From NCBI GenBank assembly GCA_965262615.1, contig OZ253545.1:1115113-1179112 (forward strand): a stretch of DNA of 64,000 bases, given 5' to 3'. The position numbers were made by a program, and so were the translations under genes. The notes beneath the pieces are model-generated. The model saw nothing but the letters and a program-made list of their open reading frames with translations, searched no databases and was not told where the DNA came from. This document shows positions 3,496 to 48,010 of this stretch, one piece after another (the stretch's first letter is position 1; the number at the start of each line of letters is the position of its first letter). Source of the DNA: Alphaproteobacteria bacterium (GTDB lineage: Bacteria; Pseudomonadota; Alphaproteobacteria; GM7ARS4; G965262615).

Positions 3496-3506
3496 GTTTT
3501 TGCAAC
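3472..3506 (-). promoter_or_regulatory. Sigma70-like promoter (TTGCAA-N17-TATAGT) ending 6 nt before the ATG at 3471; predicted leaderless transcript
   Basis: Read directly from the sequence. The same TTGCAA/TTGTGA-N16-17-TATAGT/TATAAT/TATGGT-N6-ATG arrangement recurs at 5676..5709, 7055..7088, 13078..13110 and 13675..13707. Confidence 0.5.
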
Positions 3507-3510
3507 ACTG

Positions 3511-4620: not shown

Positions 4621-4711
4621 TTTTCAATCAATATTTTGACAACACCAAGAGGCGGTATTAGGTGGCGACATTGACAAATTTTTGCAGGCATCTTTGACTG
4701 CCCAATTGGAG

Positions 4712-5675: not shown

Positions 5676-5770
5676 CCTCCTATTATATCCCCGTCCATAT
5701 TTTTTGCAACACTTTGCGGGGATTCATCACAAGGGGTGGAGCTGGCGAGGGCGCAATTGATGCCTTGGCA

Positions 5771-7078: not shown

Positions 7079-7116
7079 CTTTTTGCAACACTTAGCGACA
7101 CTGTGTCACCAATGGT

Positions 7117-7736
7117 GCATGAAACATTTGACCCTTTGTCTTTTATCTTCGTTTTTTCTATCGTCTGTGGCATTGGCGGAGTCCTCGTCGCCGTTTGATG
7201 CCATGGGGGTGCGTGATGTGATGGCATCGGCGCGGGCTGGCGACAAAGAGGCGCAACATGCCCTCGCCATGCGCTATTATCACGGACGCGGCATCAAGCA
7301 GAATCTGGAAAAGGCCTATGAGTGGCACACCAAAGCCGCCATGCAAGATCACAGCGAGTCGCTGAACGAATTGGGATGGATGCACCTCAACGGTGAGTTC
7401 GTGCCGCAAGACGAAGACATCGCCATCGCCTTTTATGAGCGTTCGGCGGCGTTGGGCAATCCTCATGGGTGTGCGCATCTGGCGGAGATTTTTGCCATGC
7501 GCGGCGACTTCATGAACGCCACCATGCACCTGATGATGGCCAGCGACCCCACCGCAAGCCGCTATGTCATGAGCATGGGACACGCCGACCCAGAACTCCT
7601 CAAAATGCAAATCATGGATGAACTCACCCCCGAGCAGCTCATCACCGCTCGCCACAACGCCATGACATGGCAGCATCAACGGCGCGACACCATGAACAAT
7701 CAATCGCCCCTGCCCTTTGCGGTGAGCTTTCAATAA
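7117..7736 (+). CDS. Divergent Sel1-like repeat lipoprotein/secreted protein
   Basis: Signal peptide MKHLTLCLLSSFFLSSVALA, then degenerate Sel1 repeats (DKEAQHALAMRYYHGRGIKQNLEKAYEWHTKAA...). Start chosen at the first ATG with a signal peptide; the ORF-track start at 6861 overlaps the converging Sel1 gene. Confidence 0.6.
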
Positions 7737-11704: not shown

Positions 11705-11766
11705 TGCGTCTTTCCCCGCACCCCGTCCAATTGCAACAAAGCGATGGAATATGGTAGGATAAGGGT

Positions 11767-13053: not shown

Positions 13054-13077
13054 TACCATCGCCATCTCTTCCGTGTT

Positions 13078-13650
13078 GTGAAGAATGTGGCGATGGGATA
13101 TGGTGAGGGGATGGGTTGGAATAAAGCAAATGTATTGGCGAGGCGTGGTGGTGGCACGGCGTTTTTGTTTGCCATTGTCGTCATTGCTCATACGGGCTGG
13201 ATGGCGAGCGTGGCTCATGCTGATGCAACGGAAGAAGTGCAACAATGGATAGAATTCGCGAAGGGAGGCAGTGCCTTTTACCAAAACGAGGTTGGTTCTG
13301 CGTATGCCGATGGTCGGGGTGTCACGAAGGATTATGAAGAAGCGGTGTTCTGGTATCGCAGAGCCGCCGAACAAGGAAATGCCCTCGCCCAAGCCAATCT
13401 TGGGGTGATGTATAGGGATGGGATGGGTGTCACGCAGGATGATGAGGAAGCGGTGGAATGGTGGAAAAAAGCCGCCGAGCAAGAGAATGCCATAGCTCAA
13501 TTCAATCTTGGGGTGATGTATGGCAAGGGGATAGGCGTGGCACAGAGTGATGAAAAAGCCGTCTATTGGCTCACAAAAGCCGCCGAACAAGGCGATGAAG
13601 ATGCAACAGAAGTTCTCAAAACATTAGAAGAGTTAGAAAACAACAAGTGA
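13078..13650 (+). CDS. Secreted Sel1-like repeat protein (4 repeats)
   Basis: Signal peptide ...IAHTGWMASVAHA. Probable start at 13111 (MGWNK), after TTGTGA-N17-TATGGT-N6. The 3' 250 bp is about 95% identical to 37385..37630. Confidence 0.85.
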   Translation: MKNVAMGYGEGMGWNKANVLARRGGGTAFLFAIVVIAHTGWMASVAHADATEEVQQWIEFAKGGSAFYQNEVGSAYADGRGVTKDYEEAVFWYRRAAEQGNALAQANLGVMYRDGMGVTQDDEEAVEWWKKAAEQENAIAQFNLGVMYGKGIGVAQSDEKAVYWLTKAAEQGDEDATEVLKTLEELENNK

Positions 13651-13674
13651 TACTATCCCCATCTCTTCCGTGTT

Positions 13675-14565
13675 GTGAAGAATGTGGCGATGGGATATGG
13701 TGGGGGCATGAATTGGAATAAAGCAAATGTATTGGCGAGGCGTGGTGGTGGCATGGCTTTTTTGTTTGTCATTGTCGTCACATCTTTTTCCTTGAGTGCG
13801 GTGGCGGAGGATGACTTATCACAATTGGAAATTCTGGCAGAACAGGGGAATCCCTACGCCCAAAACGATCTTGGTGTCATGTATGAGGGCGGTGAGAGGG
13901 TGACGCAGGATTATGAAAAAGCGGTGTTTTGGTATCAACGCGCCGCTGAGCAGGGGTATGATGTCGCCCAATCCAATCTTGGCAATATGTATGACAGAGG
14001 CGATGGGGTGGCGCAGGATTATGAAGAGGCGGCTGAGTGGTATCAAAAAGCTGCTGAACAAGGCTATGCCCAAGCCCAATACAATCTTGGTGTGATGTAT
14101 GCTGAAGGTGAAGGGGTGATGCGAGATTATGAAAAGGTGGTGGAATGGTGGCAAAAAGCTGCCGACCAAGGTTTTGCCGATGCCCAATACAATCTTGGCT
14201 GGCTCTATTACTACGGCGAGGGAGTGACGCAGGATTATCAAAAAGCGGCTGAGTGGTATAGGCAAGCTGCTGGGCAAAATCATCACATTGCTCAGGCTCG
14301 GCTGGGTGTCATGGTTGCCAAGGGTTATGGGGTGAGGCAGGATGATGAAAAAGCGATGGAATGGTATCAAAAAGCGGAGGGACAAATCAAAAAGGATGCT
14401 GAGCGGGGCGATGACTATGCTCAATACACTCTTGGCTGGCTTTATGCTCAAGGTGGCGGAGCCAATCCCAGCATGCAACAGGCGATAAAATGGCTACGCA
14501 AAGCCGCAGAGCAAGGGAGTTCATTTGCTCACGATGAGCTCAAAAGATTAGAAAAAAACAACTAA
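13675..14565 (+). CDS. Secreted Sel1-like repeat protein
   Basis: Sel1 repeats. Probable start at 13708 (MNWNK), after the same promoter arrangement. Confidence 0.85.
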   Translation: MKNVAMGYGGGMNWNKANVLARRGGGMAFLFVIVVTSFSLSAVAEDDLSQLEILAEQGNPYAQNDLGVMYEGGERVTQDYEKAVFWYQRAAEQGYDVAQSNLGNMYDRGDGVAQDYEEAAEWYQKAAEQGYAQAQYNLGVMYAEGEGVMRDYEKVVEWWQKAADQGFADAQYNLGWLYYYGEGVTQDYQKAAEWYRQAAGQNHHIAQARLGVMVAKGYGVRQDDEKAMEWYQKAEGQIKKDAERGDDYAQYTLGWLYAQGGGANPSMQQAIKWLRKAAEQGSSFAHDELKRLEKNN

Positions 14566-14582
14566 TTCGCGCGCCTCTCTCA

Positions 14583-15257
14583 TCATTCGCGTTTTCCGAA
14601 TATTGCCGTGCCGATTCGGATGTGGGTTGCGCCGGCGTTGATGGCGTCTTCAAAGTCGTTGCTCATGCCCATGCTGAGCTGCGAGAGATGGCACCGTTTT
14701 GCCAGCTGTGCCAGCTCATTAAAATAGCGTTTGCCCTGACCGATGGGCGGCAGACACATCAGCCCCACGATTGGCAGGTGTGCGGAGCGCATGGCATCAA
14801 TGAGGCGGGGTGCGTCTTGGGGTGCGATTCCCGCTTTTTGCGTCTCTGCTGCCGCATTGACCTGCACAAACAAGGATGGATTTCTGCCCGTGCCGTCCCG
14901 CTCCCGCACGAATGGCTCAATGAGGCTGTGGCGATCAAACGCGTGAATGACATCACACACCCCCATGATTTTTTTCACCTGCCGCCGTTGCAACGCGCCG
15001 ATATGATGCAGCACCACATGAGGATGCTCTTGTTTCAGCTCATGCCATTTCCCATGAATCTCATCCATGCGATTCTCCCCAAAATCCCCATGCCCCACAT
15101 TGATGGCTTCACGAATAGAATCGCTGGATTGCTGTTTAGACACCGCAATCAAGGTGATTGATTGTCGCCGCTCCCCCGCCACAGCCGCAACCCGCCGTGT
15201 GATGGATTCAATCCGTTCCCTAATGGTTGTGTCATTGCCCATAATGTGTCTTTTCAC
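14583..15257 (-). CDS. yggS: YggS/PLPHP family pyridoxal-phosphate homeostasis protein
   Basis: LIAVSKQQSSDSIREAINVGHGDFGENRMDE matches the YggS N-terminal PLP-binding region. About 220 aa, typical length. Confidence 0.8.
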   Translation of the reverse strand: MKRHIMGNDTTIRERIESITRRVAAVAGERRQSITLIAVSKQQSSDSIREAINVGHGDFGENRMDEIHGKWHELKQEHPHVVLHHIGALQRRQVKKIMGVCDVIHAFDRHSLIEPFVRERDGTGRNPSLFVQVNAAAETQKAGIAPQDAPRLIDAMRSAHLPIVGLMCLPPIGQGKRYFNELAQLAKRCHLSQLSMGMSNDFEDAINAGATHIRIGTAIFGKRE

Positions 15258-15306
15258 GCCCGCAAATCAATTGCAACAAAATGATGAAATGTGGTAGGGT
15301 GGAGGC

Positions 15307-16536
15307 ATGAGCGACCAAGAAACAAAAACAGAGCTTCAACAGAATATCTTTTCCGTCACGCAAACAATTCCTAAAGAGTGGCAAAAGCCTACGGTGATAG
15401 GTATTTTGTTGCTCACTTTTTATTATTTTTCAACCACTATTATTAAGGATTGGCTTCGCCTTGTCATTATTTATGATTACGACTACCTACAGGATGCTTT
15501 AGATGCACTTTTTCATTTTTTTATTGTAGCATCTGTTTTATTTGCACTATGGCTAGTGGTGCAAATTGCCAAGCTATTACTGGAAGAAACTCAAGATGAA
15601 GCAAAAAAAGCTGCTGAGAAAGGAATACCTGAAGGTCAATACAGTCTTGGTTTGAAGTACTACTTTGGCAATGATGTGCCACAAGATTACGAGAAAGCGG
15701 TGGAATGGTGGCAAAAAGCTGCCCAACAAGGGATTGTCGAAGCCCAATACAATCTTGGTGTGATGTATGAGCGCGGTATGGGGGTGACGCAAAATTATGA
15801 AAAAGCGGTGGAATGGTATGAAAAAGCTGCCCAACAAGGGCTTGCCAAAGCCCAATACAATCTTGGTGTGATGTATGAGTTCAGTAAGGGAGTGGTGCAG
15901 AATTATGAAAAAGCGGTGCAATGGTATCAACAAGCTGCCCAACAAGGCGATGCCGATGCCCAATTCAATCTTGGTGGAATGTATGACAGAGGTTATGGGG
16001 TGGTGCAGGATTATGAAAAAGCGGTGGAATGGTATGAAAAAGCTGCCCAACAAGGGCTTGCCAAAGCCCAATACAATCTTGGTGGAATGTATAACAGAGG
16101 TGATGGGGTGACGCAGGATTACGAAAAAGCGGTGCAATGGTTTCAAAAAGCTGCCGAACAAGGTCTTGCAGAAGCTCAATACAATCTTGGTGGAATGTAT
16201 AACAGAGGTAATGGGGTGATGCAGAATTATGAAAAAGCGGTGGAATGGTGGCAAAAAGCTGCCCAACAAGGGATTGTCGAAGCCCAATCCAATCTTGGTA
16301 CGATGTATGATTTGGGTAGAGGAGTAAAGAAGAGTAAAGAAAAAGCTTTGGAATGGTATCAAAAAGCTGCCCAACAAGGTAATGCCCCAGCCCAATTCAA
16401 TCTTGGTTTAATGTATGCCAACGCTGATGGGGTGACGCAGGATTTGGAAAAAGCGAAGGAATGGATTAAAAAAGCTGCCGACCAAGGGCTTGAGGTAGCT
16501 ATAGATGCTCTCAAGGAATTAGAAAAAAAGAAGTGA
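15307..16536 (+). CDS. Sel1-like repeat protein with N-terminal TM segments
   Basis: About 9 Sel1 repeats. Upstream TTGCAA-N18-TAGGGT. C-terminal AIDALKELEKKK. Confidence 0.85.
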   Translation: MSDQETKTELQQNIFSVTQTIPKEWQKPTVIGILLLTFYYFSTTIIKDWLRLVIIYDYDYLQDALDALFHFFIVASVLFALWLVVQIAKLLLEETQDEAKKAAEKGIPEGQYSLGLKYYFGNDVPQDYEKAVEWWQKAAQQGIVEAQYNLGVMYERGMGVTQNYEKAVEWYEKAAQQGLAKAQYNLGVMYEFSKGVVQNYEKAVQWYQQAAQQGDADAQFNLGGMYDRGYGVVQDYEKAVEWYEKAAQQGLAKAQYNLGGMYNRGDGVTQDYEKAVQWFQKAAEQGLAEAQYNLGGMYNRGNGVMQNYEKAVEWWQKAAQQGIVEAQSNLGTMYDLGRGVKKSKEKALEWYQKAAQQGNAPAQFNLGLMYANADGVTQDLEKAKEWIKKAADQGLEVAIDALKELEKKK

Positions 16537-16604
16537 CACAGCCCTTGTCTTTTCACGAACGCCGTTCAGTTGCAACGCCTCATGAGCTGTGGTAGGGTGG
16601 CAAT

Positions 16605-17348
16605 GTGACAGATATTATCTCATCCCTCAAAGATATATTCCAAGAGTGGCACACGCTTATAGTGTTCCTTGCTGTTGCTTATTTTTTACCCAATATTATT
16701 AATAAATGGTCAGCTTTTGGGAAAAAAGATACAGACGCAACTAGAAAAATTGCCGAGAACGGAGAGCCCGACGGTCAAGACAATCTTATTTTTGTGCCAC
16801 AGGATGACGAGCAAACGGTGGAGTGGTGTCAAGAAGCTGCCGACCAAGGGATTGCCGAAGCCCAATACAATCTTGGTGAGATGTATCGCAGAGGTTATGG
16901 AGTAACGCAGAATTATGAAAAAATGGTGGAATGGTGGCAAAAAGCTGCCGACCAAGGATTTGCCGAAGCTCAATACAATCTTGGTGTGGCTTACGAAAAT
17001 GGGGTTGGTGTAAAAAAGGACTATAAAAAGGCGGTGCAATGGTATCAAAAAGCCGCGATGCAAGGTCATGCCAATACCCAAAACAATCTTGGTGGGATGT
17101 ATTCCAACGGTTATGGGGTAACGCAGAATATGGAAAAAGCGGTGGAATGGTGGCAAAAAGCTGCCAAACAAGAAAATGCCTCAGCCCAATACAATCTTGG
17201 CTTGATGTATGCCAACGGTGATGGTGTGACGCAGGATTATGAAAAAGCGAAGGAATGGTTGCAAAAAGCTGCACTGCAGGGGCATGATGATGCAGGGAAA
17301 ACTATTTTTAAATTAGAGGTATTGGAAGAATTAGCAAAAAAGAAGTGA
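16605..17348 (+). CDS. Sel1-like repeat protein
   Basis: About 5 Sel1 repeats with an N-terminal hydrophobic segment. Upstream TTGCAA-N17-TAGGGT. Confidence 0.8.
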   Translation: MTDIISSLKDIFQEWHTLIVFLAVAYFLPNIINKWSAFGKKDTDATRKIAENGEPDGQDNLIFVPQDDEQTVEWCQEAADQGIAEAQYNLGEMYRRGYGVTQNYEKMVEWWQKAADQGFAEAQYNLGVAYENGVGVKKDYKKAVQWYQKAAMQGHANTQNNLGGMYSNGYGVTQNMEKAVEWWQKAAKQENASAQYNLGLMYANGDGVTQDYEKAKEWLQKAALQGHDDAGKTIFKLEVLEELAKKK

Positions 17349-17932
17349 CACGATTCTTGTCTCTCTGGTTCATGACATCGGCTCACCACGCCGAGAGTGA
17401 CAGCGATGCCACAATTATAAGCCTTCTGCCAAGAGGACGCATCGCTTGTGTGGTGCGTTATTATGATGCCGCCGTTCCGCACCGCGCCGCCATCATCGCC
17501 CGCTTGCACACCATCGCGCGCGCCCGCCGAATTCAATTGTTCGTCTCTGTCATGAAGGGTCACCCTCTGCCGCACACCATCAAAACCATTCACATCTCAT
17601 CATGGTATTGTGCGCGCAATCTTGTCTCTTCATGGCGGCACAAACACTATACCGTCAGCACCTCTATTCATTCAGTGGCAGAATGGACACGCGCGCTACA
17701 ATACAATCCCACCTATTGCCTGATTTCGCCGATTTATGCAACAGGCGACAAAAAGGCTTTGCCGCGTTCCATCCGTTCCGCCATTCTTGCATCATCACAA
17801 CCCCACAACTTTCCTCGCCTGTTGGCATTGGGAGGCATCACGAATCGCACACCCATAGACAAGCGGTTCTATGGCAGAGCGATGCGGCGCGGTTTTACAT
17901 CCGCCATCAATCCATCTACAATAAAAACATGA
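17345..17932 (+). CDS. Possible thiamine-phosphate synthase/TenI-family protein
   Basis: C-terminal YCLISPIYATGDKKALP...LLALGGIT resembles the ThiE motif (GvGpifpTxTK ... aIGGI). Weak. Confidence 0.35.
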   Translation: MTRFLSLWFMTSAHHAESDSDATIISLLPRGRIACVVRYYDAAVPHRAAIIARLHTIARARRIQLFVSVMKGHPLPHTIKTIHISSWYCARNLVSSWRHKHYTVSTSIHSVAEWTRALQYNPTYCLISPIYATGDKKALPRSIRSAILASSQPHNFPRLLALGGITNRTPIDKRFYGRAMRRGFTSAINPSTIKT

Positions 17933-20463: not shown

Positions 20464-22020
20464 TCAATTGTGTTGTGTTAGTTTTTTGAGAATATCTTGA
20501 GCTTTGGCATCGCCTTGTTCGGCAGCTTTTTGCAACCAAAGCACCGCTTTTACAAGATTCTTCTTTACCCCCTCACCTCTGCCATACATCACACCAAGAT
20601 TGTATTGGGCTTCAGTATGACCCTGATCGGCAGCTTGTTGCCACCATTCCACCGCTTTTTGCTTATTCTTCGTCCCCCCCTCACCTTTGCCATACATCAC
20701 ACCAAGAATGTATTGGGCATCGGCATCCCCTTGGTCGGCAGCTTTTTGCAACCATTTTGACGCTTCTTTCTTATTCTCCTTCAATCCCCCCTCACCGTTG
20801 TAATACATCCCACCAAGATTGTGCTGAGCTAGAGCATGACCTTGGTCGGCAGATTTTTGAAGCCATTTTAAGGCTTCTTTCTTATTCTCCTTCAATCCCC
20901 CTTCACCGTTGTAATACATCACGCCAAGATTGGCTTGGGCGTTGGCAAGTCCTTGGTCGGCAGCTTTTTGATACCATTCCACCGCTTTTTCATAATCCTG
21001 CTTCACCCCCTTACCGTTGTAATACTTGATACCAAGATTGTATTGGGCTTCTGCAAGCCCTTGTTGGGCAGCTTTTTCATAACATTTCACCGCCTCCTTT
21101 GTATCAGTGTCAACGCCTCGCCCAGATTCATACATCCCACCAAGATTGATTTGAGCTAGAGCATAGCCCTGTTTGGCAGCTTTTTGATACCATTCCACCG
21201 CTTTTTCATAATCCTGCTTCAGTCCCCCATCACCGTTGGCATACATCACACCAAGATTAGATTGCGCTTCGGCATGACCTTGGTCGGCAGCTTTTTGATA
21301 CCATTCCACCGCTTTTTTCTTATCCTGCGTCACACCCCTACCATGCTCATACATCACACCAAGATTGTATTGGGCTGGGATAAGTCCTTGTTTAGCAGAT
21401 TTTTTCATCCATTTCAAAGATTCTTCCTTATTTTCCTTCACTCCCTCGCCGTTGTAATACATCACGCCAAGATTGAGTTGGGCTGGAGCATCCCCTTGGT
21501 CGGCAGCTTTATGATACCAAAACACCGCTTTTTCATCATCCTGTGCAACGCCATCCCCCAATTTATAAGCCACACCAAGATTGTATTGGGCTAGGGCAAT
21601 ACCTTGCTCCGCAGCTTGTTGCCACCATTCCAACGCTTTTTTCTTATCCTGCGTTACCCCTTTAGGACTGTGATACATCACACCAAGATTGAATTGGGCT
21701 AGGGCATCCCCTTGTTGGGCAGCTTTTTGATACCATTCCGCCATTTGCTCGTCATCCTGTGGCACACCATTGCCAAAGTAATTATAATTATAATTATAAT
21801 TATTGATAATTTGATTATTGATAAAAGTATTGTTTTGACCTTCGGGCTTGCCTTTCTCGGCAGCTTTATCTTTTTTAAACAAAGATTTAACAATGAGGAT
21901 GCACCCCAAAACACCCAAAACAAAAATGAGTGACAGAAAAACTACCACTATATCCTTGTAATCCTCTGGAAAAATCTCTTTGAGGAATGGGGTCATATCT
22001 GCAAGACCTGATAAAGTCAT
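20464..22020 (-). CDS. Sel1-like repeat protein with N-terminal TM and an Asn/Tyr low-complexity linker (NNYNYNYNY)
   Basis: About 11 Sel1 repeats. The linker is encoded by an (AATTAT)x4 hexanucleotide repeat at 21780..21803. Confidence 0.85.
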   Translation of the reverse strand: MTLSGLADMTPFLKEIFPEDYKDIVVVFLSLIFVLGVLGCILIVKSLFKKDKAAEKGKPEGQNNTFINNQIINNYNYNYNYFGNGVPQDDEQMAEWYQKAAQQGDALAQFNLGVMYHSPKGVTQDKKKALEWWQQAAEQGIALAQYNLGVAYKLGDGVAQDDEKAVFWYHKAADQGDAPAQLNLGVMYYNGEGVKENKEESLKWMKKSAKQGLIPAQYNLGVMYEHGRGVTQDKKKAVEWYQKAADQGHAEAQSNLGVMYANGDGGLKQDYEKAVEWYQKAAKQGYALAQINLGGMYESGRGVDTDTKEAVKCYEKAAQQGLAEAQYNLGIKYYNGKGVKQDYEKAVEWYQKAADQGLANAQANLGVMYYNGEGGLKENKKEALKWLQKSADQGHALAQHNLGGMYYNGEGGLKENKKEASKWLQKAADQGDADAQYILGVMYGKGEGGTKNKQKAVEWWQQAADQGHTEAQYNLGVMYGRGEGVKKNLVKAVLWLQKAAEQGDAKAQDILKKLTQHN

Positions 22021-22054
22021 CTCCCCATCCTATCACATTCCATCATTTTTTGTG

Positions 22055-35999: not shown

Positions 36000-37652
36000 A
36001 TGAACAACAAAAAACTCATCGCATGGATTGCCATCACCGTCATTGCCCACACGGGATGGACAATGGGCGTGGCTCATGCCGATGAAACGGTAGATTTGCA
36101 CCAATTGATGGAAGACGCTCAACAAGGCGATGCCGATGCCCAATTCTATCTTGGGTTGATGTATGGCAATGGCGCGGGTGTCACGCAGGATTATGAGGCA
36201 GGCATCTATTGGGTCACAAAAGCCGCGGAACAATGGCATGCCGATGCCCAATACGCTCTTGGGGTGTTTTATAAAAATGGCGATGGTGTGGCACAGAATT
36301 ATGAGAAAGCCGTGTATTGGTATCAAAAAGCCGCGGCGCAAGGAAATGCCGATGCCCAATACGATCTTGGGTTGATGTATGGCAAGGGCGCAGGTGTCAC
36401 GCAGGATTATGAGGCAGGCATCTATTGGTTCACAAAAGCCGCAGAGCAAAACCATGCTGATGCAATAGAAATACTCAAGGAATTAGGCATGGCTCATGAA
36501 ACGGACGAATTGCACCATTTGATGGAACGCGCCCAGCAAGGCGACTCCGTATCCCAATTCTATCTTGGGACGATGTATGAACAGGGCAGAGGTGTCTCTC
36601 GAGATGTTGGACAAGCGGTGCAATGGTATCAAAAAGCCGCCAAGCAAGGATTTGCCCAAGCCCAATACAACCTTGGGTGGATGTATGAAAATGGCACAGG
36701 TGTTCCGCAAGATGATGAACAGGCGGTAGAATGGTATCAAAAAGCCGCGGCACAAGGACTTGCCAATGCTCAAAACAATCTGGCGGAGATGTATCGCGAG
36801 GGCAGAGGTGTTCCGCAGGATGATGAGCAAGCGTTGGAATTGTATCTAAAATCCGCCGAGCAAGGATATGATCGCGCTCAAACCACTATGGGCTGGATGT
36901 ATGACAATGGCATTGGTGTTGTGCAAGATTATGAGCAAGCCGCGCAATGGTTCACAAAAGCCGCGGTGCAAGGATTTGCCCGAGCTCAAAGTAATCTTGC
37001 TATGATGTATCTTCATGGCAGAGGTGTTCCGCAGGATTATGAGCAAGCCGCGCAATGGTGGAGAAAAGCCGCAAGGCAAGGCTATGCCAAGGCTCAATTC
37101 AATCTTGGGCTGATGTATCACAATGGAGATGGGGTTGCACAGGACGATGAGCAAGCTTTGTATTGGTGGGAGAAAGCCGCAAGACAAGGAAATAAAGATG
37201 CAATAGAAGCTCTCAAAATATTAGGCATGGCTGATGAAACGGACGAATTGCACCAATTGAGAGAACGCGCCGAGCAAGGCGATGCCGATGCCCAAAACTA
37301 TCTTGGTGTGATGTATAACACTGGCATGGGTGTGACGCAGGATAAAAAAGAAGCCGTGGAATGGTTCAAAAAATCCGCCGAACAAGGAAATGCCCTCGCC
37401 CAAGCCAATCTTGGAGTGATGTATAGGGATGGGATGGGTGTCACGCAGGATGATGAGGAAGCTGTGGAATGGTGGAAAAAAGCCGCAGAGCAAGAAAATG
37501 CCGTAGCCCAATACAATCTTGCTGTGATGTATGGCAAGGGAATCGGCGTGGCACAGAGTGATGAAAAAGCCGTCTATTGGTTCACAAAAGCCGCCAAACA
37601 AGGCGATGTTGATGCAATAGAAGTTCTCAAGAAATTAGGCATCACCGACTGA
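36000..37652 (+). CDS. Secreted Sel1-like repeat protein (550 aa; three tandem modules each ending DAIE-LK-LGM)
   Basis: Signal peptide ...IAHTGWTMGVAHA and about 13 Sel1 repeats. The last module is about 95% DNA-identical to 13380..13625. Confidence 0.85.
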   Translation: MNNKKLIAWIAITVIAHTGWTMGVAHADETVDLHQLMEDAQQGDADAQFYLGLMYGNGAGVTQDYEAGIYWVTKAAEQWHADAQYALGVFYKNGDGVAQNYEKAVYWYQKAAAQGNADAQYDLGLMYGKGAGVTQDYEAGIYWFTKAAEQNHADAIEILKELGMAHETDELHHLMERAQQGDSVSQFYLGTMYEQGRGVSRDVGQAVQWYQKAAKQGFAQAQYNLGWMYENGTGVPQDDEQAVEWYQKAAAQGLANAQNNLAEMYREGRGVPQDDEQALELYLKSAEQGYDRAQTTMGWMYDNGIGVVQDYEQAAQWFTKAAVQGFARAQSNLAMMYLHGRGVPQDYEQAAQWWRKAARQGYAKAQFNLGLMYHNGDGVAQDDEQALYWWEKAARQGNKDAIEALKILGMADETDELHQLRERAEQGDADAQNYLGVMYNTGMGVTQDKKEAVEWFKKSAEQGNALAQANLGVMYRDGMGVTQDDEEAVEWWKKAAEQENAVAQYNLAVMYGKGIGVAQSDEKAVYWFTKAAKQGDVDAIEVLKKLGITD

Positions 37653-37682: not shown

Positions 37683-38114
37683 TCAAAAAAGTGCCGTGGC
37701 AACCATTCCCAACAGAGCCACCATCACGCTCACAAGAACAACAATCACCCGCGTCGCAAAGAGATTGAAAGCCTGCAACAACACATTGATATCTTCCTTA
37801 ATTTCAGTTCGCGCCTGAGCGATTTGAGTTTCCAGTTTGGCGATTTGAGTTTCCAGTTTGGCGTTATTTTCATTATTTTCAGCTCGCGCCTGAGCGATTT
37901 GAGCTTCCAGTTTGGCGATTTGAGCTTCCAGTTTGGCGATTTTGGTCTCCAGTTTGGCGATATCTTCCTTCGTGGCAAAATTCTTGCCTTGCTCTTTGAT
38001 GGTGGCAACATCCACCTTCAGAGCAACCACATCCGCTTTGAGGGCGACCACATCATCATACAAGCCATTCGCCTTGCGATGTTCGGTTGGTTTTTGTTCC
38101 GTCTGGATAGTCAT
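37683..38114 (-). CDS. Small coiled-coil protein with C-terminal TM anchor (DUF1640/CCDC90-like, tail-anchored)
   Basis: ...ALKADVVALKVDVATIKE...FATKEDIAKLE(IAKLEAQ)n...RVIVVLVSVMVALLGMVATALF. The ATKxDL/I motif and C-terminal TM resemble DUF1640. Start set at MTIQTEQ because the ORF-track extension is the promoter. Confidence 0.55.
   Translation of the reverse strand: MTIQTEQKPTEHRKANGLYDDVVALKADVVALKVDVATIKEQGKNFATKEDIAKLETKIAKLEAQIAKLEAQIAQARAENNENNAKLETQIAKLETQIAQARTEIKEDINVLLQAFNLFATRVIVVLVSVMVALLGMVATALF
37804..37957 (-). repeat. In-frame 21-bp tandem repeats (about 5 copies; heptad IAKLE(A/T)Q) nested within a ~75-bp repeat
   Basis: GATTTGAG(T/C)TTCCAGTTTGGC repeated on the plus strand. 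Confidence 0.85.
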
Positions 38115-38183
38115 GGTGGTTAGAATATGTGCATTTGCAGGGTTTGTCAATGCCAAGATGCCTTACGGTCATTGCAGATGACC
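38115..38183 (-). promoter_or_regulatory. Conserved promoter TTGACA-N17-TATTCT-N7-ATG plus upstream palindrome GGTCATTGCAGATGACC (38167..38183)
   Basis: Promoter and palindrome are conserved upstream of 4 of the 5 DUF1640-like paralogs (41657..41735, 45649..45715, 46249..46300). Confidence 0.5.
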
Positions 38184-38294
38184 ATGAGCAAGAGAAAACA
38201 TCACTCAAAACATTGGGCATACCCAACTAATTCGCCCTCGCTCTTGCTTTTTGCCATTGGTTTTTGTATGGGTGGCGTGCCCAATGGCAATCAA

Positions 38295-39553: not shown

Positions 39554-41077
39554 GTGGAAAAATTCTTTGAATACATTTTCCCAAAAAAAATCAGTACGAG
39601 GTCGCGAGTCTGTCTCTTATTCCTTGTACCCGCATTGTCCATTTTAATCCTTCTTCCATCAATTCTTGAAGCTTGGAATCAACCTCCATTGCCAAGCCAA
39701 TTTTTCTATTCTTTAATTACGGTAACAGGATTTCTGCTTTTTGCTTTGATTTTATCATTAATAAAAGATTTTGAAAAATCATCCGAGCCAACGCGTGACA
39801 TAGCTAAAGACTTACATGATATGCTTCCTGAATTGGCGTTGTATATCACCGAACAATTGGTATCGGATAACATAAAAAATATGCAAAAGAAAGAAGCAAC
39901 AAGACAATTTAATCTTGGTGTCAAACATTTATTTGGCAAGGGTGTTAAAAAAAATGCACAAAAAGCATTCCTCCACTTTGAAGCAGCCGCCCAACAAGGG
40001 GATGCCTACGCCCAATTCAATCTTGCTTTGATGTATAGGAATGGCAAAGGAGTGGCACAAAATGATAAGAAAGCCCTGTATTGGTATCAAAAAGCCGCCC
40101 AACAAGGGGATGCTAGAGCCCAATTCAATCTTGCTTGGATGTATCATGAGGGCAAAGGAGTGGCACAGAATGATGAGAAAGCCCTGTATTGGTATCAAGA
40201 ATCCGCCCAACAAGGGGATGCTAGAGCCCAATTCAATCTTGCTTTAATGTATCATGAGGGCAAAGGAGTGGCACAAAATGATGAGAAAGCCCTGTATTGG
40301 TATCAAAAAGCCGCCCAACAAGGGAATGCCAAAGCCCAATTCAATCTTGCTTGGATGTATGATGAGGGCAAAGGAGTGGCACAGAATGATGAGAAAGCTG
40401 TGTATTGGTATCAAGAATCCGCCCAGCAAGGGGATGCCAAAGCCCAATTCAATCTTGCTTGGATGTATGATGAGGGCAAAGGAGTGGCACAAAATGATAA
40501 GAAAGCACTATATTGGTATCAAGAATCCGCACAACAAGGAAGTGCCAGAGCCCAAATCAGTCTTGGGATGGCTTATGTTGGCGGAAAAGGTATTTCACAG
40601 GATTATCATGAGGCGATGCAATGGTTCAAAAAAGCCGCAGAACAAGGGAGTACCGATGCCCAAAACAATATTGGCTTTATGTATGCCACTGGCATGGGTA
40701 TTAAACCAAATGAGAAAAAAGCAGTGCATTGGCTCACAAAAGCTTCAGAGCAAGGATTTGCCATAGCCCAATTCAATCTCGCTGTGGTGTATGAAAGTGT
40801 GACACAGAATGATCAAAAAGCGAAGCACTGGTATCAAAAAGCCGTCCAGCAAGTTAGTGACGAAACCAAATTCACTCAGCAAGAAGAGCAGGAGAGGATC
40901 AAAGAAGCGGAACAAGAAGGGGATGCCAATTCCTTGTATCTTCTTGGCGTGAGATACGCCATTGGCGAAGAAGTCACGCGAGATTATGAAAAAGCGGCGC
41001 ACTGGTTCACCCAAGCATCTCAGCTGAACTTTATTCAAGCCACGCGAGCTCTTGAATTGCTGAAAAAAGTCAAATAA
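39554..41077 (+). CDS. Sel1-like repeat protein with N-terminal TM segments (AQFNLAxMYxEGKGVAQNDxKA variant)
   Basis: About 11 Sel1 repeats. Confidence 0.85.
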   Translation: MEKFFEYIFPKKISTRSRVCLLFLVPALSILILLPSILEAWNQPPLPSQFFYSLITVTGFLLFALILSLIKDFEKSSEPTRDIAKDLHDMLPELALYITEQLVSDNIKNMQKKEATRQFNLGVKHLFGKGVKKNAQKAFLHFEAAAQQGDAYAQFNLALMYRNGKGVAQNDKKALYWYQKAAQQGDARAQFNLAWMYHEGKGVAQNDEKALYWYQESAQQGDARAQFNLALMYHEGKGVAQNDEKALYWYQKAAQQGNAKAQFNLAWMYDEGKGVAQNDEKAVYWYQESAQQGDAKAQFNLAWMYDEGKGVAQNDKKALYWYQESAQQGSARAQISLGMAYVGGKGISQDYHEAMQWFKKAAEQGSTDAQNNIGFMYATGMGIKPNEKKAVHWLTKASEQGFAIAQFNLAVVYESVTQNDQKAKHWYQKAVQQVSDETKFTQQEEQERIKEAEQEGDANSLYLLGVRYAIGEEVTRDYEKAAHWFTQASQLNFIQATRALELLKKVK

Positions 41078-41101
41078 AGCTCAAACTACACGGGGTAAAC
41101 A

Positions 41102-41312
41102 ATGGACATGGCTCATACTGATTTGCAACAATTGATGGAGCGCGCTCAACAAGGCGATGCCCTCAGCCCAAAACAGTCTGGGGTGCATGTATGAACAAGG
41201 CAGAGGTGTCACGCAGGATTATGAAGAAGCCGTGCGATGGTTCAAAAAAGCCGCGAGGCAAGGAAATAAAGCTGCCATAAAATCCCTCAAAATTTTAGGC
41301 ATGACCGACTAA
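41102..41312 (+). pseudogene. Degenerate fragment of a Sel1-like repeat gene (internal stop), ending ...KILGMTD*
   Basis: MDMAHTDLQQLMERAQQGDA...(stop)...RGVTQDYEEAVRWFKKAARQGNKAAIKSLKILGMTD is homologous to the module boundaries of the 36000..37652 gene. Confidence 0.6.
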
Positions 41313-41326
41313 TTCAAGGGTTTTCG

Positions 41327-41656
41327 TCACTTCAAAATAAGTGTCACCAGAATGCCCACAAGGGACACAATCACTCCCGCCAGAGCCACAATCACTCGCG
41401 CAGCGGCGCGATTGACGGCATCCAACAACTCATTTTTCGCCTTATCAATCTTGCCATCCACGACCGATATTTTGTCCAGCAGTTCAGCTCGCAAATCGGC
41501 AACATCTTCCTTCGTGGCAAAATGATTGCACTGCTCCTTGATGGTGGCAACATCCACTTTGAGAGTCACCACATCCGCTTTGAGAGCGACCACATCATCA
41601 TGCAAGCCATTCGCACCGCGATGCTTTGGTGGTTCTTGATTCGTTTCTATCGTCAT
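41327..41656 (-). CDS. DUF1640/CCDC90-like small coiled-coil tail-anchored protein
   Basis: Paralog of 37683..38114, with the same C-terminal TM and the FATKEDVADL motif. Confidence 0.55.
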   Translation of the reverse strand: MTIETNQEPPKHRGANGLHDDVVALKADVVTLKVDVATIKEQCNHFATKEDVADLRAELLDKISVVDGKIDKAKNELLDAVNRAAARVIVALAGVIVSLVGILVTLILK

Positions 41657-41808
41657 GGTGATGAGAGTATGGGCATTTCAAGAATTTGTCAATGGCAAGA
41701 CGCATTACGATCATTGCAGATGACCATGAGGCAAGAGTCACCATCATTCAAAAAAGAGCAGTTGCAATTGCGTCTTAACTTTGCCATCCAAAAGCGGTAT
41801 AAAAGCCC

Positions 41809-42307: not shown

Positions 42308-43254
42308 GCGAGCGCATTCACGACTCCATCACCGACCTCATTGGCAAAACGCCTCTGTTGCGCCTCAATCGCTTTGCGCGCTTTCACCAGTGCGAGGCGG
42401 AGCTCATCGCCAAACTGGAGCTTCTCAATCCTCTTTCATCGGTGAAGGATCGCATCGGGCTTGCCATGATTGATGATGCCGTGGCAGCGGGACGCATCAC
42501 CGCAAACACCACCATCATAGAACCCACATCCGGCAACACGGGCATTGCTCTGGCATTCGTGGCAGCCGCCCGAGGGCTGAAACTCATTTTAACCATGCCC
42601 GCCAGCATGTCTGTGGAACGCCGCAAAATGCTCCAATTGCTGGGCGCACAAACCCATCTCACCGACCCCGCCCGAGGCATGAAGGGCGCGATTGAAAAAG
42701 CACACGAACTGCACAAAGAAATCAAGGATTCCATCATTTTGCAACAGTTTGAAAATCCCGCCAATCCAACCATTCATCGCCACACCACGGCGCAAGAAAT
42801 ATGGCACGATGTGGGCAGGCGGCTGGATATTTTCGTCTCGGGCGTGGGAACGGGCGGCACGGTGACCGGCGTGAGTGAGGTCATCAAAGAGCAGCACCCC
42901 GCCCTTCATGTGGTGGCGGTAGAACCCGAAGACTCCCCCGTTCTGTCGGGAGGCACGGCGGGACCCCACAAAATTCAAGGCATTGGCGCAGGCATGATTC
43001 CCAAAAATCTCAACCAACAAATGATTGATGAGGTCATCACCATCAGCAACGAGACGGCGTTTGAGACGGCGCGCACGGTGGCGCGTCTTGAGGGCTTGGC
43101 GGTAGGCATTTCATCGGGGGCGGCTCTGGCGGCGGCTTTAGAGGTGGGACAGCGAGCCCAAAACAAAGGCAAACGAATCCTTGTCATTCTGCCGTCCGCC
43201 GCCGAACGCTACCTCTCCACCGAGCTTTTTTCCGATGGCATGGATACCAAATAA
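42304..43254 (+). CDS. cysK: Cysteine synthase A (O-acetylserine sulfhydrylase)
   Basis: PLP-lysine motif SVKDRIG, GNTGIALA, and TGGT/SSGA loops. Confidence 0.9.
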   Translation: MSERIHDSITDLIGKTPLLRLNRFARFHQCEAELIAKLELLNPLSSVKDRIGLAMIDDAVAAGRITANTTIIEPTSGNTGIALAFVAAARGLKLILTMPASMSVERRKMLQLLGAQTHLTDPARGMKGAIEKAHELHKEIKDSIILQQFENPANPTIHRHTTAQEIWHDVGRRLDIFVSGVGTGGTVTGVSEVIKEQHPALHVVAVEPEDSPVLSGGTAGPHKIQGIGAGMIPKNLNQQMIDEVITISNETAFETARTVARLEGLAVGISSGAALAAALEVGQRAQNKGKRILVILPSAAERYLSTELFSDGMDTK

Positions 43255-43308
43255 CCGTGAAGAATTTTGGTATTGACAAATTCTGCAAATTCACATATTC
43301 TCACCATC

Positions 43309-43590
43309 ATGACGACAGAGACGAAGCAAAAAAAAGAATATCTCACGGTGACGGCAAAAACCTATCGCTTGAAGAGCGGTCGCGCTCTTCTCATGGTGGA
43401 TTTTACCACTCATGAAAGTGTCGCCGCCCTGCAAAGTGACGATGCTGTCAGTTTGTTGCGGGGAGATATCGCTCAACTGCGTGAAGAAATTGAGAGGGCG
43501 AAAAATGAAGTGATCTATGCCATCAATCGCGCCGCTGTGGGAGTCATTGTTTCTTGTGTGATCGTTATGGTGGCAATCATTCTTAAGTGA
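43309..43590 (+). CDS. DUF1640/CCDC90-like small coiled-coil tail-anchored protein
   Basis: Paralog. Preceded by TTGACA-N17-TATTCT-N7-ATG. Confidence 0.5.
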   Translation: MTTETKQKKEYLTVTAKTYRLKSGRALLMVDFTTHESVAALQSDDAVSLLRGDIAQLREEIERAKNEVIYAINRAAVGVIVSCVIVMVAIILK

Positions 43591-44871: not shown

Positions 44872-44981
44872 CTATAGTCTCAATGACAAGATGAATGAGG
44901 CATGAATTGGGAAAGAATTTCAAGCTGTGAGATTCTTGGCAAAGTGTTTAATTCTTAATGGGAATATGGTAAGCTGCCACC

Positions 44982-45352
44982 ATGAGAACCACCCGCCTTA
45001 TCACATGGATTGCCATTGTCGTCATTGCTCATACGGGCTGGATGCCGAGCGTGGCTCATGCCGAAGAAGATGCCATAGCCCAATACAATCTTGGGGTGGA
45101 TTATTACAACGACAAGGACTACCTACAAGCAGCGTATTGGTGGAAAAAAGCCGCCGAACAAGGGAATGCCAATGCTCAAACCACTCTGGCGTTGATGTAT
45201 TACGATGGCACAGGTGTCACACAGGACGGTCTGCAGGCGGCGTATTGGTTCAAAAAAGCCGCAGAACAAGGACATAAAGGGGCGATAAAAGCCCTCAAGA
45301 AGGAAATAAAGATGCGATAAAAGCCCTCAAAACATTAGGCATGACCAACTAA
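44982..45352 (+). CDS. Short secreted Sel1-like repeat protein, C-terminus disrupted by a 32-bp duplication
   Basis: Signal peptide IAHTGWMPSVAHA and 2 Sel1 repeats. The GCGATAAAAGCCCTCAA direct repeat causes a premature stop at 45320; removing the insertion restores ...KALKTLGMTN*. Confidence 0.6.
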
Positions 45353-45366
45353 TTCAAGGGGTTTTA

Positions 45367-45648
45367 TCATTTAAGAATTAGTGTTACCAGAATGCCGCCC
45401 AGAGCCACAATCACTCCCACGAGAGCCACAATCACCCGCACGGCAAAGCGATTGATGGCTTCCAACAACTCATTTTTCGCCTCAATGACATCTTTTTTGG
45501 TGGCAAAATGATTGCACCGCTCCTTGATGGTGGCAACATCCACCTTGAGATCCACCATATCATCACGCGAGCCATTGGCACCGCGATGCTTGGGTGTTTT
45601 CTGCACCTCGCGATGCTTTGGTGGTTCTTGCTGCGTTTCCATTGTCAT
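45367..45648 (-). CDS. DUF1640/CCDC90-like small coiled-coil tail-anchored protein
   Basis: Paralog with the same promoter and C-terminal TM. Confidence 0.5.
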   Translation of the reverse strand: MTMETQQEPPKHREVQKTPKHRGANGSRDDMVDLKVDVATIKERCNHFATKKDVIEAKNELLEAINRFAVRVIVALVGVIVALGGILVTLILK

Positions 45649-45735
45649 GGTGATGAGAATATGTGCGTTTGCAGGGTTTGTCAATAACAAAATTCTTCAC
45701 GGTCATTTGGCATGACCATGAGGCAAGGGTTTTCG

Positions 45736-46248
45736 TCACTTCAAAATAAGTGTCACCAAGATGCCCACAAGAGACACAATCACTCCCACAAGAGTCACAA
45801 TCACCCGCGTAGCAACGCGATTGAAAGCTTCTAACACCTCATTTTTTGCCTTCTCAATCTTGTGATCCGTGGCTGACATTTTCTCCAGCAGTTCAGCTCG
45901 CAGTTCAGCCATGTCAGCTCGCAGTTCGGCGATGTTTTCCCTATTGTCAGCTCGCAGTTCGGCGATGTTTTCCCTATTGTCAGCTCGCAGTTCGGCGATG
46001 TTTTCCTTATTGTCAGCTCGCGCCTCAGCAATTTGAGTTTCCAGCTTGGCGATTTGAGCTTCCAGTTTGGCGATTTTGGTCTCCAACTTGGCGATATCTT
46101 CCTTCGTGGCAAAATTCTTGCCTTGCTCTTTGATGGTGGCAACATCCACCTTCAGAGCGACCACATCCGCTTTGAGGGCGACCACATCATCATACAAGCC
46201 ATTCGCCTTGCGATGTTCGGTTGGTTTTTGTTCCGTCTGGATAGCCAT
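45736..46248 (-). CDS. DUF1640/CCDC90-like small coiled-coil tail-anchored protein with two in-frame repeat arrays
   Basis: Paralog. Contains (ADNRENIAELR)x3 and the IAKLE heptad array. Confidence 0.55.
   Translation of the reverse strand: MAIQTEQKPTEHRKANGLYDDVVALKADVVALKVDVATIKEQGKNFATKEDIAKLETKIAKLEAQIAKLETQIAEARADNKENIAELRADNRENIAELRADNRENIAELRADMAELRAELLEKMSATDHKIEKAKNEVLEAFNRVATRVIVTLVGVIVSLVGILVTLILK
45913..46011 (-). repeat. In-frame 33-bp tandem repeat (3 copies)
   Basis: GTCAGCTCGCAGTTCGGCGATGTTTTCCCTATT occurs 3 times on the plus strand. Confidence 0.9.
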
Positions 46249-46280
46249 AGTGGTTAGAATATGTGCATGTCAAGCGTTTG

Positions 46281-47615
46281 TCAATCACAAGATGCCTCAC
46301 GGTCATTTGGCATGAATTGGGCAAGAATTTCATGCAGCTGCTGCCACGCTTCACGCAGTGCCTGTGGTGCGATGCAATACGGTGGCATCATATAGACCAC
46401 ATTACCCAACGGACGCAGCAACAGCCCGCGCCGCAACGCCTCTTCGCCAATGGCTGTGCCAATGGTGGCGTGATAGCCTTCATCCTTGCCATCAATGGTG
46501 AAGGCGGCAATCGTTCCCATGATGCGCGGCTTGGTGATGTGAGGCAGAGTCATGATGTCTTGCATGGCGGTGTGATGAATGTGTTCTATGGCGCGAATGC
46601 GCGTCCATGTGTCGTCCGCATCAAACAGCTGCAATGATGCCAGTGCCGCGGCGCATGCCAATGGATTGGCGGTGTAGGAATGACCATGAGCAAAAAAGTG
46701 TCCCCCATCATGAGCAAAAGCCTCATAGATATGGTTCTGAATGATGGTCGCCGCAAGGGGAAGCGTGCCACCAGTCAATCCTTTGGCACAACAGAGAATG
46801 TCCGGCTGGTGTGCCAATTGGTCGCTGGCGAACAATGAGCCCAAGCGTCCAAAGGCGGTCATGACTTCGTCAAAAATAATAAGCGCATCGCTTTTGGTGC
46901 GAATCATGGCAACCGCCTCATTGAAAAAACGCCTTGAGCTCATCCGCATGCCACTCGCTCCCTGCACCAACGGCTCTAAAATGACCGCATTGAGAGTGTG
47001 CCCGTTGGTGTGCAAGTGTTCAGATAGTGTCTCAAGGGCGCGCTCTTCGGTCACGCCCATTGCGTTGTCATGCAGCCATGTCTCGGGATACGAGGTGAAA
47101 TGAAACGGATAGAGCAAGGATTCAAACCCCTCATAGAGCTGGCATGAGACCCCCGCCGCCATCGCCCCCATGGTGTCACCGTGATAGCCTCCCTCCAATG
47201 CCAGAAAGTGCTTGGGTTCTTTGCCCTTTTTGCGCCAGTAGAGCCATGCCATTTTGAGAGCAATTTCAACGGCGCACGAGCCATTATCGGAGAAAAACAC
47301 CCGCTGCAATGATGATGGTGTCACCCGCGCCAGATGCTCTGCCACCCGCACCGCGCCCTCATGAGTCACACCGGCAAACAACACATGAGACAATCGCTCA
47401 CTTTGTTTGTGAATGGCTTTCATGATGGCAGGATGACGATGACCGTGGGTCACCACCCACCACGAAGAGATGAGATCCTGATAGCCGCGATCCGTTTCAT
47501 CATAGAGAACACTGCCTTCAGCTCGCGTGATGACCAACGGCGCACCGCCCTTATCAAACGGATGCCACAAATGAGTCGCGTCTAAAGACGAAAGATTATG
47601 TGGAAACGCCATCAA
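46281..47615 (-). CDS. bioA: Adenosylmethionine-8-amino-7-oxononanoate aminotransferase
   Basis: Class-III aminotransferase with PLP-lysine motif CCAKGLTGG, in a bio operon. Confidence 0.88.
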   Translation of the reverse strand: MMAFPHNLSSLDATHLWHPFDKGGAPLVITRAEGSVLYDETDRGYQDLISSWWVVTHGHRHPAIMKAIHKQSERLSHVLFAGVTHEGAVRVAEHLARVTPSSLQRVFFSDNGSCAVEIALKMAWLYWRKKGKEPKHFLALEGGYHGDTMGAMAAGVSCQLYEGFESLLYPFHFTSYPETWLHDNAMGVTEERALETLSEHLHTNGHTLNAVILEPLVQGASGMRMSSRRFFNEAVAMIRTKSDALIIFDEVMTAFGRLGSLFASDQLAHQPDILCCAKGLTGGTLPLAATIIQNHIYEAFAHDGGHFFAHGHSYTANPLACAAALASLQLFDADDTWTRIRAIEHIHHTAMQDIMTLPHITKPRIMGTIAAFTIDGKDEGYHATIGTAIGEEALRRGLLLRPLGNVVYMMPPYCIAPQALREAWQQLHEILAQFMPNDREASCD

Positions 47616-48010
47616 ACAAGATGGTGAATTTTTTCATGATGCCCTTGAGGGGATTTTGAGTTTTTGCCATCACGACCATCCAAATAGGTCTTGTAGAAAA
47701 GATTGTGATAGTGAGCAATGAGCTGTGTGACATCATTGTCATCTTCCACTCTAAAAACACGCACATTTCTGACACACTGACCAAACCACTCATGATGTGC
47801 CACCATCTCTTGCAAGGCACTGACGCACTCCAGCCAAGAAGATGCTCCCAAATAGACACTGCCCTGCACATTGACCAAAGCATACTTCTTGAAAACATCA
47901 CCAATGGCTTTGTAGGCATTTTGATAGGAAGTGGGACATTCTCGCTCCAGACACTTTGTGTCCATATCAAACACCACGGCATAAGTTGAACTGCTGGTTT
48001 TCGGTGTCAT
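47612..48010 (-). CDS. vapD: VapD-family (Cas2-fold) endoribonuclease-like protein
   Basis: YAVVFDMD...YQNAYKAIGDVFKKYALVNVQGSVYLG...EWFGQCVRNVRVFRVEDDNDVTQ parallels H. pylori/Haemophilus VapD (YALAFDL...QGSVYV...EWFKKSVRDIRAFKVEDFSD). Confidence 0.75.
   Translation of the reverse strand: MTPKTSSSTYAVVFDMDTKCLERECPTSYQNAYKAIGDVFKKYALVNVQGSVYLGASSWLECVSALQEMVAHHEWFGQCVRNVRVFRVEDDNDVTQLIAHYHNLFYKTYLDGRDGKNSKSPQGHHEKIHHLV

Follow-up and report, generated by a model that had tools for sequence, protein, structure and literature searches.

The conserved DNA block that precedes five paralogous genes (g1 to g5) is probably best explained as a promoter abutting the start codon, with the leader peptide read from it being an artefact and a palindrome farther upstream being a hitch-hiker at the junction between neighbouring units. 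First, the motif TTGACA-N17-TAYTCT-N7-ATG was found exactly five times in the window, i.e., the whole 64 kb stretch of DNA that was analyzed (50% G+C), versus 0.02 matches expected from shuffled sequences. Second, all five matches are located directly 5' of the family genes (Table 1). Third, an alignment of the five upstream regions yielded, in gene orientation, the shared block ...CTCTTGCC-TCAT-GGTCAT-N5-ATGACC-N16-TTGACA-N17-TATTCT-N7-ATG; g1, for example, has a spacer of 17 nt and the 7-nt discriminator AACCACC. In a consensus scan, four of the promoters matched at 10 of 12 hexamer positions, at a spacer length of 17 nt, the exception being g2 with TACTCT. The first-pass annotation of this DNA had assigned TATTCT to four copies, g2 among them; the motif is real in all five copies, and g2 is the one with the deviant -10 hexamer. 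The promoter that had been ascribed to the fifth copy, g3, matches the motif exactly. It is well supported by the sequence that the conserved block is a sigma-70-type promoter, and each family gene would carry its own, with a consensus -35 element, a 17-bp spacer and a TANNNT -10 element. The stop codon of bioA (46281-46283) falls within the -35 hexamer of g5.

Table 1. Coordinates of the family genes, their promoters and palindromes, and of further features of the window.
Feature	Position	Strand	Description
g1 gene	37683..38114	-	143 aa, tail-anchored coiled-coil protein, true start MTIQTEQ
g1 core promoter and start	38112..38150	-	-35 TTGACA 38145-38150; -10 TATTCT 38122-38127; ATG 38112-38114
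g1 palindrome	38167-38183	-	GGTCAT-CTGCA-ATGACC, exact
g2 gene	41327..41656	-	109 aa
g2 core promoter and ATG	41654..41692	-	-35 41687-41692; -10 TACTCT 41664-41669; ATG 41654-41656
g2 palindrome	41709-41725	-	GGTCAT-CTGCA-ATGATC, one mismatch
g3 gene	43309..43590	+	93 aa, most diverged paralog
g3 core promoter and ATG	43273..43311	+	-35 43273-43278; -10 43296-43301; ATG 43309-43311
g3 right half-site remnant	43251..43256	+	ATAACC; ATGACC in other strains
g4 gene	45367..45648	-	93 aa
g4 core promoter and ATG	45646..45684	-	-35 45679-45684; -10 45656-45661; ATG 45646-45648
g4 palindrome	45701-45717	-	GGTCAT-GCCAA-ATGACC, exact; 3' of g5 stop, followed by T-rich tract
g5 gene	45736..46248	-	170 aa
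g5 core promoter and ATG	46246..46284	-	-35 46279-46284; -10 46256-46261; ATG 46246-46248
g5 half palindrome	46301..46317	-	right arm ATGACC intact 46301-46306; degenerate left arm 46312-46317
Sel1-repeat region (example)	872-7078
Sel1-repeat region (example)	11767-17348
Sel1-repeat region (example)	20464-22020
Sel1-repeat region (example)	36000-37652
Sel1-repeat region (example)	39554-41312
Sel1-repeat region (example)	44982-45352
Second promoter-like module	11740-11766	+	leaderless-type geometry
Second promoter-like module	15280-15306	+	leaderless-type geometry
Second promoter-like module	22021-22047	-	leaderless-type geometry
Third module	3472-3515	-
Third module	5676-5719	-
Third module	7055-7098	-
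Third module	13067-13110	+
Third module	13664-13707	+

The module was compared across 16 distinct genomic loci with many strain alleles, taken from metagenome contigs that encode relatives of the family, and the promoter module was found at all 16. Across 12 paralogous loci, the information content amounted to 2.0 bits for both the -35 hexamer and the ATG, 1.79 bits for the -10 hexamer, 1.40 bits for the spacer, 1.28 bits for codons 2-13 and 1.21 bits for the discriminator. The -35 hexamer was TTGACA in all five window copies and at all 16 loci, with a single strain allele reading TTGATA, and the spacer was 17 nt throughout. The -10 hexamer took the forms TATTCT, TACTCT, TATTTT, TATCCT, TAGTAT and TATTAT, with CATTCT (locus K) and TAATTA/AATTAT (L022) as exceptions. 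The ATG was invariant except for one GTG allele on a low-coverage (3.8x) contig, and its distance to the -10 hexamer was 7 nt in 30 of 32 alleles, 8 nt in L022 and 23 nt in locus J. The variation between copies resembles a small mutational scan, in which the inner -10 bases and the 7-nt discriminator drift across loci and TA...T and the two spacings stay constant.

The loci L022-L024, which stem from a second sample set and a more distant population, carry TAGTAT or TATTAT as -10 hexamer and GGCTACT or TGTTGCC as discriminator. Despite these changes, they keep TTGACA, the 17-nt spacer, TA...T and a distance of about 7 nt to the ATG. This pattern is expected of a promoter and would reflect selection on promoter geometry, not on a peptide. 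The comparison of g3 with g1 points in the same direction, since the g3 protein is only 35% identical to that of g1 and its promoter differs at few positions. At 1.4 bits, the 17-nt spacer is more conserved than a plain sigma-70 promoter needs; it could hide a further binding site, or its conservation could be due to recent ancestry combined with gene conversion. In locus J (L012-L014, 3949-4000, +), a 16-nt insertion was observed that is a partial duplication of the -10 hexamer and the discriminator and is conserved in contigs from two samples.

The distance from the promoter to the ATG is 36 nt and frequently contains no stop, so that gene callers would extend the open reading frame through the promoter and produce an 'LTNPANAHIL' N-terminus. 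The in-frame translations of the promoter are MALTNPANAHILT, MLLTNPANAHILI and MVLTNSANSHILT. It had been proposed before that the promoter lies in frame with the gene and that callers read it as a spurious leader, and both points were borne out. The promoter-encoded extension is present in 7 of the 32 public protein predictions of the family, including MSLTNSANAYILIT..., MLLTNPANAHILIA..., MVLTNAANAHILIT... and a 39-residue version; several more have 2-3 extra residues, and for the majority of public homologs, MTIQTEQ is the predicted start. The in-frame sequence TTG ACA AAT TCT TGA places a stop in the spacer of g2 and g5. A stop or frameshift between the -35 hexamer and the ATG occurs in 14 of the 32 distinct promoter-plus-start alleles, g2 and g5 included, and the frame of locus J is broken by its 16-nt insertion. 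The extension is devoid of ATG codons, its sole possible start being a TTG two codons before the -35 hexamer. A translated leader peptide was rejected on the grounds of these stops and frameshifts. It is well supported that the LTNPANAHIL / MALTNPANAHILT N-terminus is an artefact, i.e., promoter DNA read as protein. The true start of the family would be the ATG of MT(I)QTEQ, which matters for annotation.

The -10 hexamer ends 7 nt before the ATG, and its first T is located 13 nt before the start codon. The discriminator ends in C or T at position 7, and the A of the ATG follows as position 8. RNA polymerase initiates 7-8 nt after the -10 element, at a purine preceded by a pyrimidine. From this arrangement we infer promoter activity with transcription beginning at the A of the ATG, a purine after a pyrimidine 8 nt past the -10 element. 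The mRNA would be leaderless or nearly so, and translation would proceed without a Shine-Dalgarno sequence; a scan of 15 nt (-18 to -4) detected no such sequence before the ATG of any family gene in the window. The spacing had been taken earlier to predict a leaderless mRNA or one with a very short leader, and the geometry fits this prediction. The gap of 23 nt in locus J indicates that strict leaderlessness is not obligatory and that a short leader is tolerated. Overall, leaderless expression of the family is the best reading, and a rather probable one.

Comparable architectures are known. A TANNNT located some 12 nt before the start codon is a published signature of leaderless genes (PMC3160421), and experiments in Deinococcus showed that a -10 element next to the open reading frame drives leaderless expression, provided that the proximity is right (PMC12340547). 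Leaderless genes with a -10 element adjoining the reading frame have been described in Deinococcus-Thermus, Actinobacteria and others (PMC12340547, PMC3160421, PMC4007540, PMC3898074). The family resembles them in that TANNNT begins 13 nt before the AUG, a Shine-Dalgarno sequence is lacking and the -10 element is the only signal upstream of the reading frame in this respect. Unlike many leaderless promoters, which have no clear -35 element, it has a perfect one at 17 nt. Unlike the documented leaderless phyla, the host is an uncultured bacterium of Gram-negative type (LpxK, BamE and PagL genes), and the architecture described here is read from sequence.

A different account would place the transcription start farther upstream. 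The conserved block would then be a transcribed 5' leader, with the ATG used by Shine-Dalgarno-independent initiation and, in the extreme form, with the LTNPANAHIL extension translated from the upstream TTG. Such a leader would suit the stretch before the ATG, which is G-poor and unstructured, as well as the unusually high conservation of the spacer and the tolerance of 23 nt in locus J; an obvious Shine-Dalgarno sequence is also absent in about half of the window genes examined. However, almost all of the 16 diverged loci have kept a perfect TTGACA and, at exactly 17 nt from it, TANNNT, whereas the intervening sequence drifts. Moreover, no conserved sequence was found upstream of -42 in loci G, J, K, L, L022 and L024, which indicates that a shared upstream promoter does not exist, and the extension, which lacks an ATG, is interrupted in the 14 alleles mentioned above. 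A transcribed leader is considered very improbable, and the promoter abutting the ATG is retained as the preferred explanation.

The palindrome GGTCAT-N5-ATGACC, with one mismatch allowed, occurred three times in the window versus 0.27 times expected. Counted from the A of the ATG, it extends from -69 to -53 with its centre at -61, and it is separated from the -35 hexamer by a fixed gap of 16 nt, not by about 17 nt as given initially. It is intact at three of the five window copies and at 5 of 16 loci, namely g1, g2, g4, a paralog absent from the window (B') and one L011 gene. Promoters that lack it are no less conserved. For g5, a partly degenerate palindrome had been reported. A remnant was confirmed, but it lies at 46301-46317, outside the interval 46249-46300 to which it had been assigned, and its left arm is replaced by the C-terminal codons of bioA. 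For g3, which had been described as lacking the palindrome, it is true that no intact copy is present, but the right half has been kept as ATAACC; the left half is the 3' end of cysK, whose stop codon (43252-43254) lies inside the right arm. The right arm likewise persists in L011-H, where the 3' end of a 232-aa open reading frame takes the place of the left arm.

The left arm and loop, together with the preceding CGAAAACCCTTG, align with the 3' flanks of g2 and g4 (z = 7-11), and these flanks, on the opposite strand, encode the final residues LGMT(D/N) and the stop of convergent Sel1-repeat genes. This homology marks the left arm as a relic of the neighbouring cassette and not as part of the promoter unit. 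The palindrome would lie outside the core module, at the junction of the promoter unit's 5' edge with the conserved 3' flank of the family gene before it. As a relic, this flank would derive from the terminal codons of a convergent Sel1 gene in antisense orientation, and the palindrome would be limited to copies with such a neighbourhood. From this we infer that it lacks a function of its own or has an accessory role at most. This reading as a junction or hitch-hiking feature is somewhat favoured; it ranks before an accessory transcription factor site and, in third place, a hairpin at the 3' end of the preceding gene.

Several properties of the palindrome would suit a site at which a dimeric transcription factor modulates those promoters that carry it. 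Among 18 distinct module sequences from five loci (11 if the comparison is confined to the 35 nt of the palindrome region), the 6-bp arms do not vary except at one C/T position, while the 5-nt loop occurs in four variants and the right flank varies. In addition, the distance to the -35 hexamer is fixed, and the motif occurs nowhere but at family modules in about 200 kb of the organism's DNA. Class I activators such as CRP bind at -61.5, and LysR-type regulators bind at about -65 to sites of the form T-N11-A. The family palindrome is comparable, as it consists of two inverted 6-bp arms separated by 5 bp (17 bp in total) and keeps a fixed distance to the -35 hexamer; with its centre at -61, it would act as an upstream class I- or LysR-type site and not as a promoter-occluding operator. 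Unlike at such sites, the core promoter is near consensus, its -35 element not obviously needing an activator, the palindrome is missing from most family promoters and a regulator gene is not nearby. The conservation is also asymmetric, extending about 15 nt to the left (TTGCCTCATGGTCAT) and about 7 nt to the right, the left arm is accounted for by its homology to the Sel1/family 3' flanks, and the symmetry is missing in the homologous intergenic region of L023 (GGGGAT-GCCAA-ATGACT). A transcription factor site is considered unlikely.

To our knowledge, the half-site matches no nameable regulator, and a DNA-binding regulator domain was not found among the approximately 50 window ORFs scanned. 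The first-pass annotation had gone further and viewed the palindrome as the operator of a dimeric regulator controlling the whole family. This view was not upheld, given the intact palindrome at 5 of 16 loci only, its centre outside the RNA polymerase footprint and a window without a regulator gene. The related idea that g3 has escaped such control would fit most copies, not one.

A role in RNA was also considered. In tandem arrays, the palindrome would form a hairpin behind the preceding family gene, at its 3' end, serve there as terminator, insulator or stabiliser, and have been copied together with the duplicated units. The g4 hairpin, at -14.7 kcal/mol (z = -4.6) and followed by AGAATTTTGT, was flagged as terminator-like and was the sole variant to pass the terminator scan, but the hairpins of g1 and g2 were no better than shuffled sequence (z = -1.9 and -1.2) and the other variants lack a U-tract (GTAAGGCATCTTGG). 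Similarly, the palindrome follows the stop codons of g5, paralog B' and the first L011 gene by about 15 nt, but it is also present where the same strand has no upstream gene (g1, B'). At the two positions where its pairing is imperfect, the sense strand, but not the other strand, has G-U wobbles. Covariation or compensatory change was not seen in the palindrome, and a possible extended stem of 13 bp is broken in 8 of the 11 sequences. A hairpin function is judged quite improbable. No Rfam 15 family matched at gathering score anywhere in the window. With regard to an invertible promoter or site-specific recombination, a recombinase domain was not found among the window ORFs scanned, and the arms comprise only 6 bp. 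The palindrome, for which the junction reading is retained, is of little value unless a binding protein is found; the occurrence of GGTCATNNNNNATGAYC at promoters outside the family modules would favour a regulator.

The genomic surroundings of the modules differ between strains. The family genes are arranged tail-to-tail with Sel1-repeat genes, and the cassettes differ between co-assembled strains. The window contains about 15 Sel1-repeat genes, set among what is otherwise core chromosome (prfB-like gene, leuS, formate dehydrogenase, bio operon, murG-ftsZ cluster). Expansions on this massive scale are seen in bacteria that live in association with hosts. The organism's loci also carry lpxK, bamE, pagL and genes of the tetrahydromethanopterin pathway. 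Two Sel1 remnants were observed: a 3'-end relic (LKTLGIPN-stop, 38204-38230, +) lies between the g1 module and an aminotransferase gene, and the Sel1 ORF at 44982-45352 (+) stops at 45320, with a typical Sel1 C-terminus (LKTLGMTN-stop, 45335-45352) just beyond, so that this gene appears truncated or frameshifted.

Rearrangements were found at or beside the modules. The Sel1-g4-g5 cassette is flanked by 23-nt direct repeats (GAAATTCTTKCCCAATTCATGCC; 44899-44921 and 46309-46331, -). It is absent from L002-L004, where a single repeat copy with a degenerate module remnant forms the end of bioA (7554-7572), and the C-terminus of BioA reads FMPNDREASCD in strains with the cassette versus FMPHSSRH in those without. 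The last codons of both cysK and bioA consist of module DNA. Paralog B' (149 aa), located between g2 and pagL in L001-L007, is missing from the window, and the g2 upstream region (41693-41780, -) is a chimera of the B' and B modules (compared with L001, 3812-4417), which points to the loss of B' through recombination between modules. Between L015 (1-3700) and L012 (890-4970), hemC-hemD-tsaD is inverted between two oppositely oriented family paralogs with the junction at the module, and the L015 gene joins the upstream flank of one paralog to the coding region and downstream sequence of the other. Variants of the loop and of the flanks are also mixed between loci in the form of short patches. 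Thus, the modules appear to act as substrates of homologous recombination, which would explain part of their sequence uniformity.

In multigene families of surface or variable proteins, conserved 5' regions can serve as recombination anchors. The present family is similar in that the modules and 5' coding ends are its most conserved parts, copy number and order differ between co-occurring strains, and the junctions of a deletion, an insertion/deletion and an inversion lie at or beside family modules. It is different in that every copy has a complete promoter of its own and that signs of a single expression site or a site-specific recombinase are lacking.

The family products comprise 93-170 aa. 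Their common N-terminus, MTIQTEQKPxxHR.ANGLxDDVVALKVDVATIKEQ, is followed by coiled-coil repeats, which vary in number, and the C-terminal tail is hydrophobic. Their initial description as DUF1640-like was not sustained beyond an architectural resemblance. PF07798 (DUF1640/CCDC90-like) scored 21.0 bits for g5, 16.9 bits for g3 and gave no match for g1, g2 and g4, versus a gathering threshold of 33.5 bits; the shared feature is a short coiled coil with one C-terminal transmembrane helix. A distant relative (P0031) likewise matched PF07798 below threshold. No fitting family was found in Pfam, NCBIfam or PHROGs, where only sub-threshold coiled-coil noise was obtained. Among 5.8 billion proteins, 32 relatives were detected, all from a handful of ENA/Logan metagenome assemblies and none from NCBI, and a scan of GTDB genomes with the family alignment yielded no relatives. 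In JGI metagenomes, the module DNA gave 0 matches, and the family profile detected one distant relative, which is of high GC and lacks the module. By these searches, the family is an orphan that appears restricted to a lineage known from few metagenomes.

The module was absent from IMG/VR, where the sole matches were short coiled-coil ones to phage tail-anchored proteins that have a weak XhlA/'hemolysin' similarity, not significant for the window proteins. On an IMG/VR phage contig (L018, 1324-1698, +), a 124-aa ORF was observed that encodes a coiled coil with NLKVDVATIKE and a C-terminal transmembrane helix and matches phrog_1193 ('hemolysin'; E = 5.5e-05), which we take to be XhlA-like. The architecture, which equals that of the family, gives a hint that the family may be distantly connected to XhlA-like proteins of phages.

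The promoter of this orphan family appears to be an ordinary, well conserved promoter of the leaderless type, i.e., a known kind of element in a fresh example. As such, it offers a clean natural case of a consensus -35/-10 promoter fused to the start codon at no fewer than 16 loci. The same start architecture was seen elsewhere in the window. TANNNT was found 6-7 nt before candidate ATGs 22 times, compared with about 1-3 times at any other distance; about five of these matches are coding artefacts of Sel1 repeats and most of the others come from paralogous families and hence are not independent. A weaker peak was present in other loci of the organism (7 at 6-7 nt versus about 1 per other distance). 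Upstream of leuS, TTTACA-N17-TACAAT-aaaaac-ATG (17885-17931, +) leaves 6 nt to the ATG, and for an M48 peptidase gene (35945, -) and bioF (51197, -), a -10-like element is located 7 nt before an ATG.

Two further modules precede Sel1-repeat genes. The second, aTTGCAAcaaaatgatggaatgTGgTAGGAT-N6-ATG with an extended -10 element, directly precedes three of them (3 matches versus 0.01 expected). The third, gtgTTGCAAaaa...TATAGT-gattgg-ATG or gtgTTGTGA...TATGGT-N6-ATG, belongs to another Sel1 subfamily, whose products start with MNW(H/N)KAN. Between bioD and bioA, a 132-aa ORF (47612-48010, -) with sub-threshold similarity to VapD (35 bits versus a cut-off of 100) was observed, with a -10-like element 6 nt before its ATG.

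As the same architecture is present at the Sel1 families and leuS, it is not special to the coiled-coil family, which suggests that leaderless expression may be common in this organism. The more promising lead is the pattern at the level of the organism, in which many starts adjoin a -10 element and Sel1 and coiled-coil cassettes recombine. As a tentative extension, many genes of the organism may be leaderless, chiefly those of the strain-variable Sel1 and tail-anchored coiled-coil families, with the modules serving as homology anchors for gain, loss, patching and inversion of cassettes between co-occurring strains. If true, this would be a system in which recombination diversifies proteins with a putative role at the surface or in host interaction.
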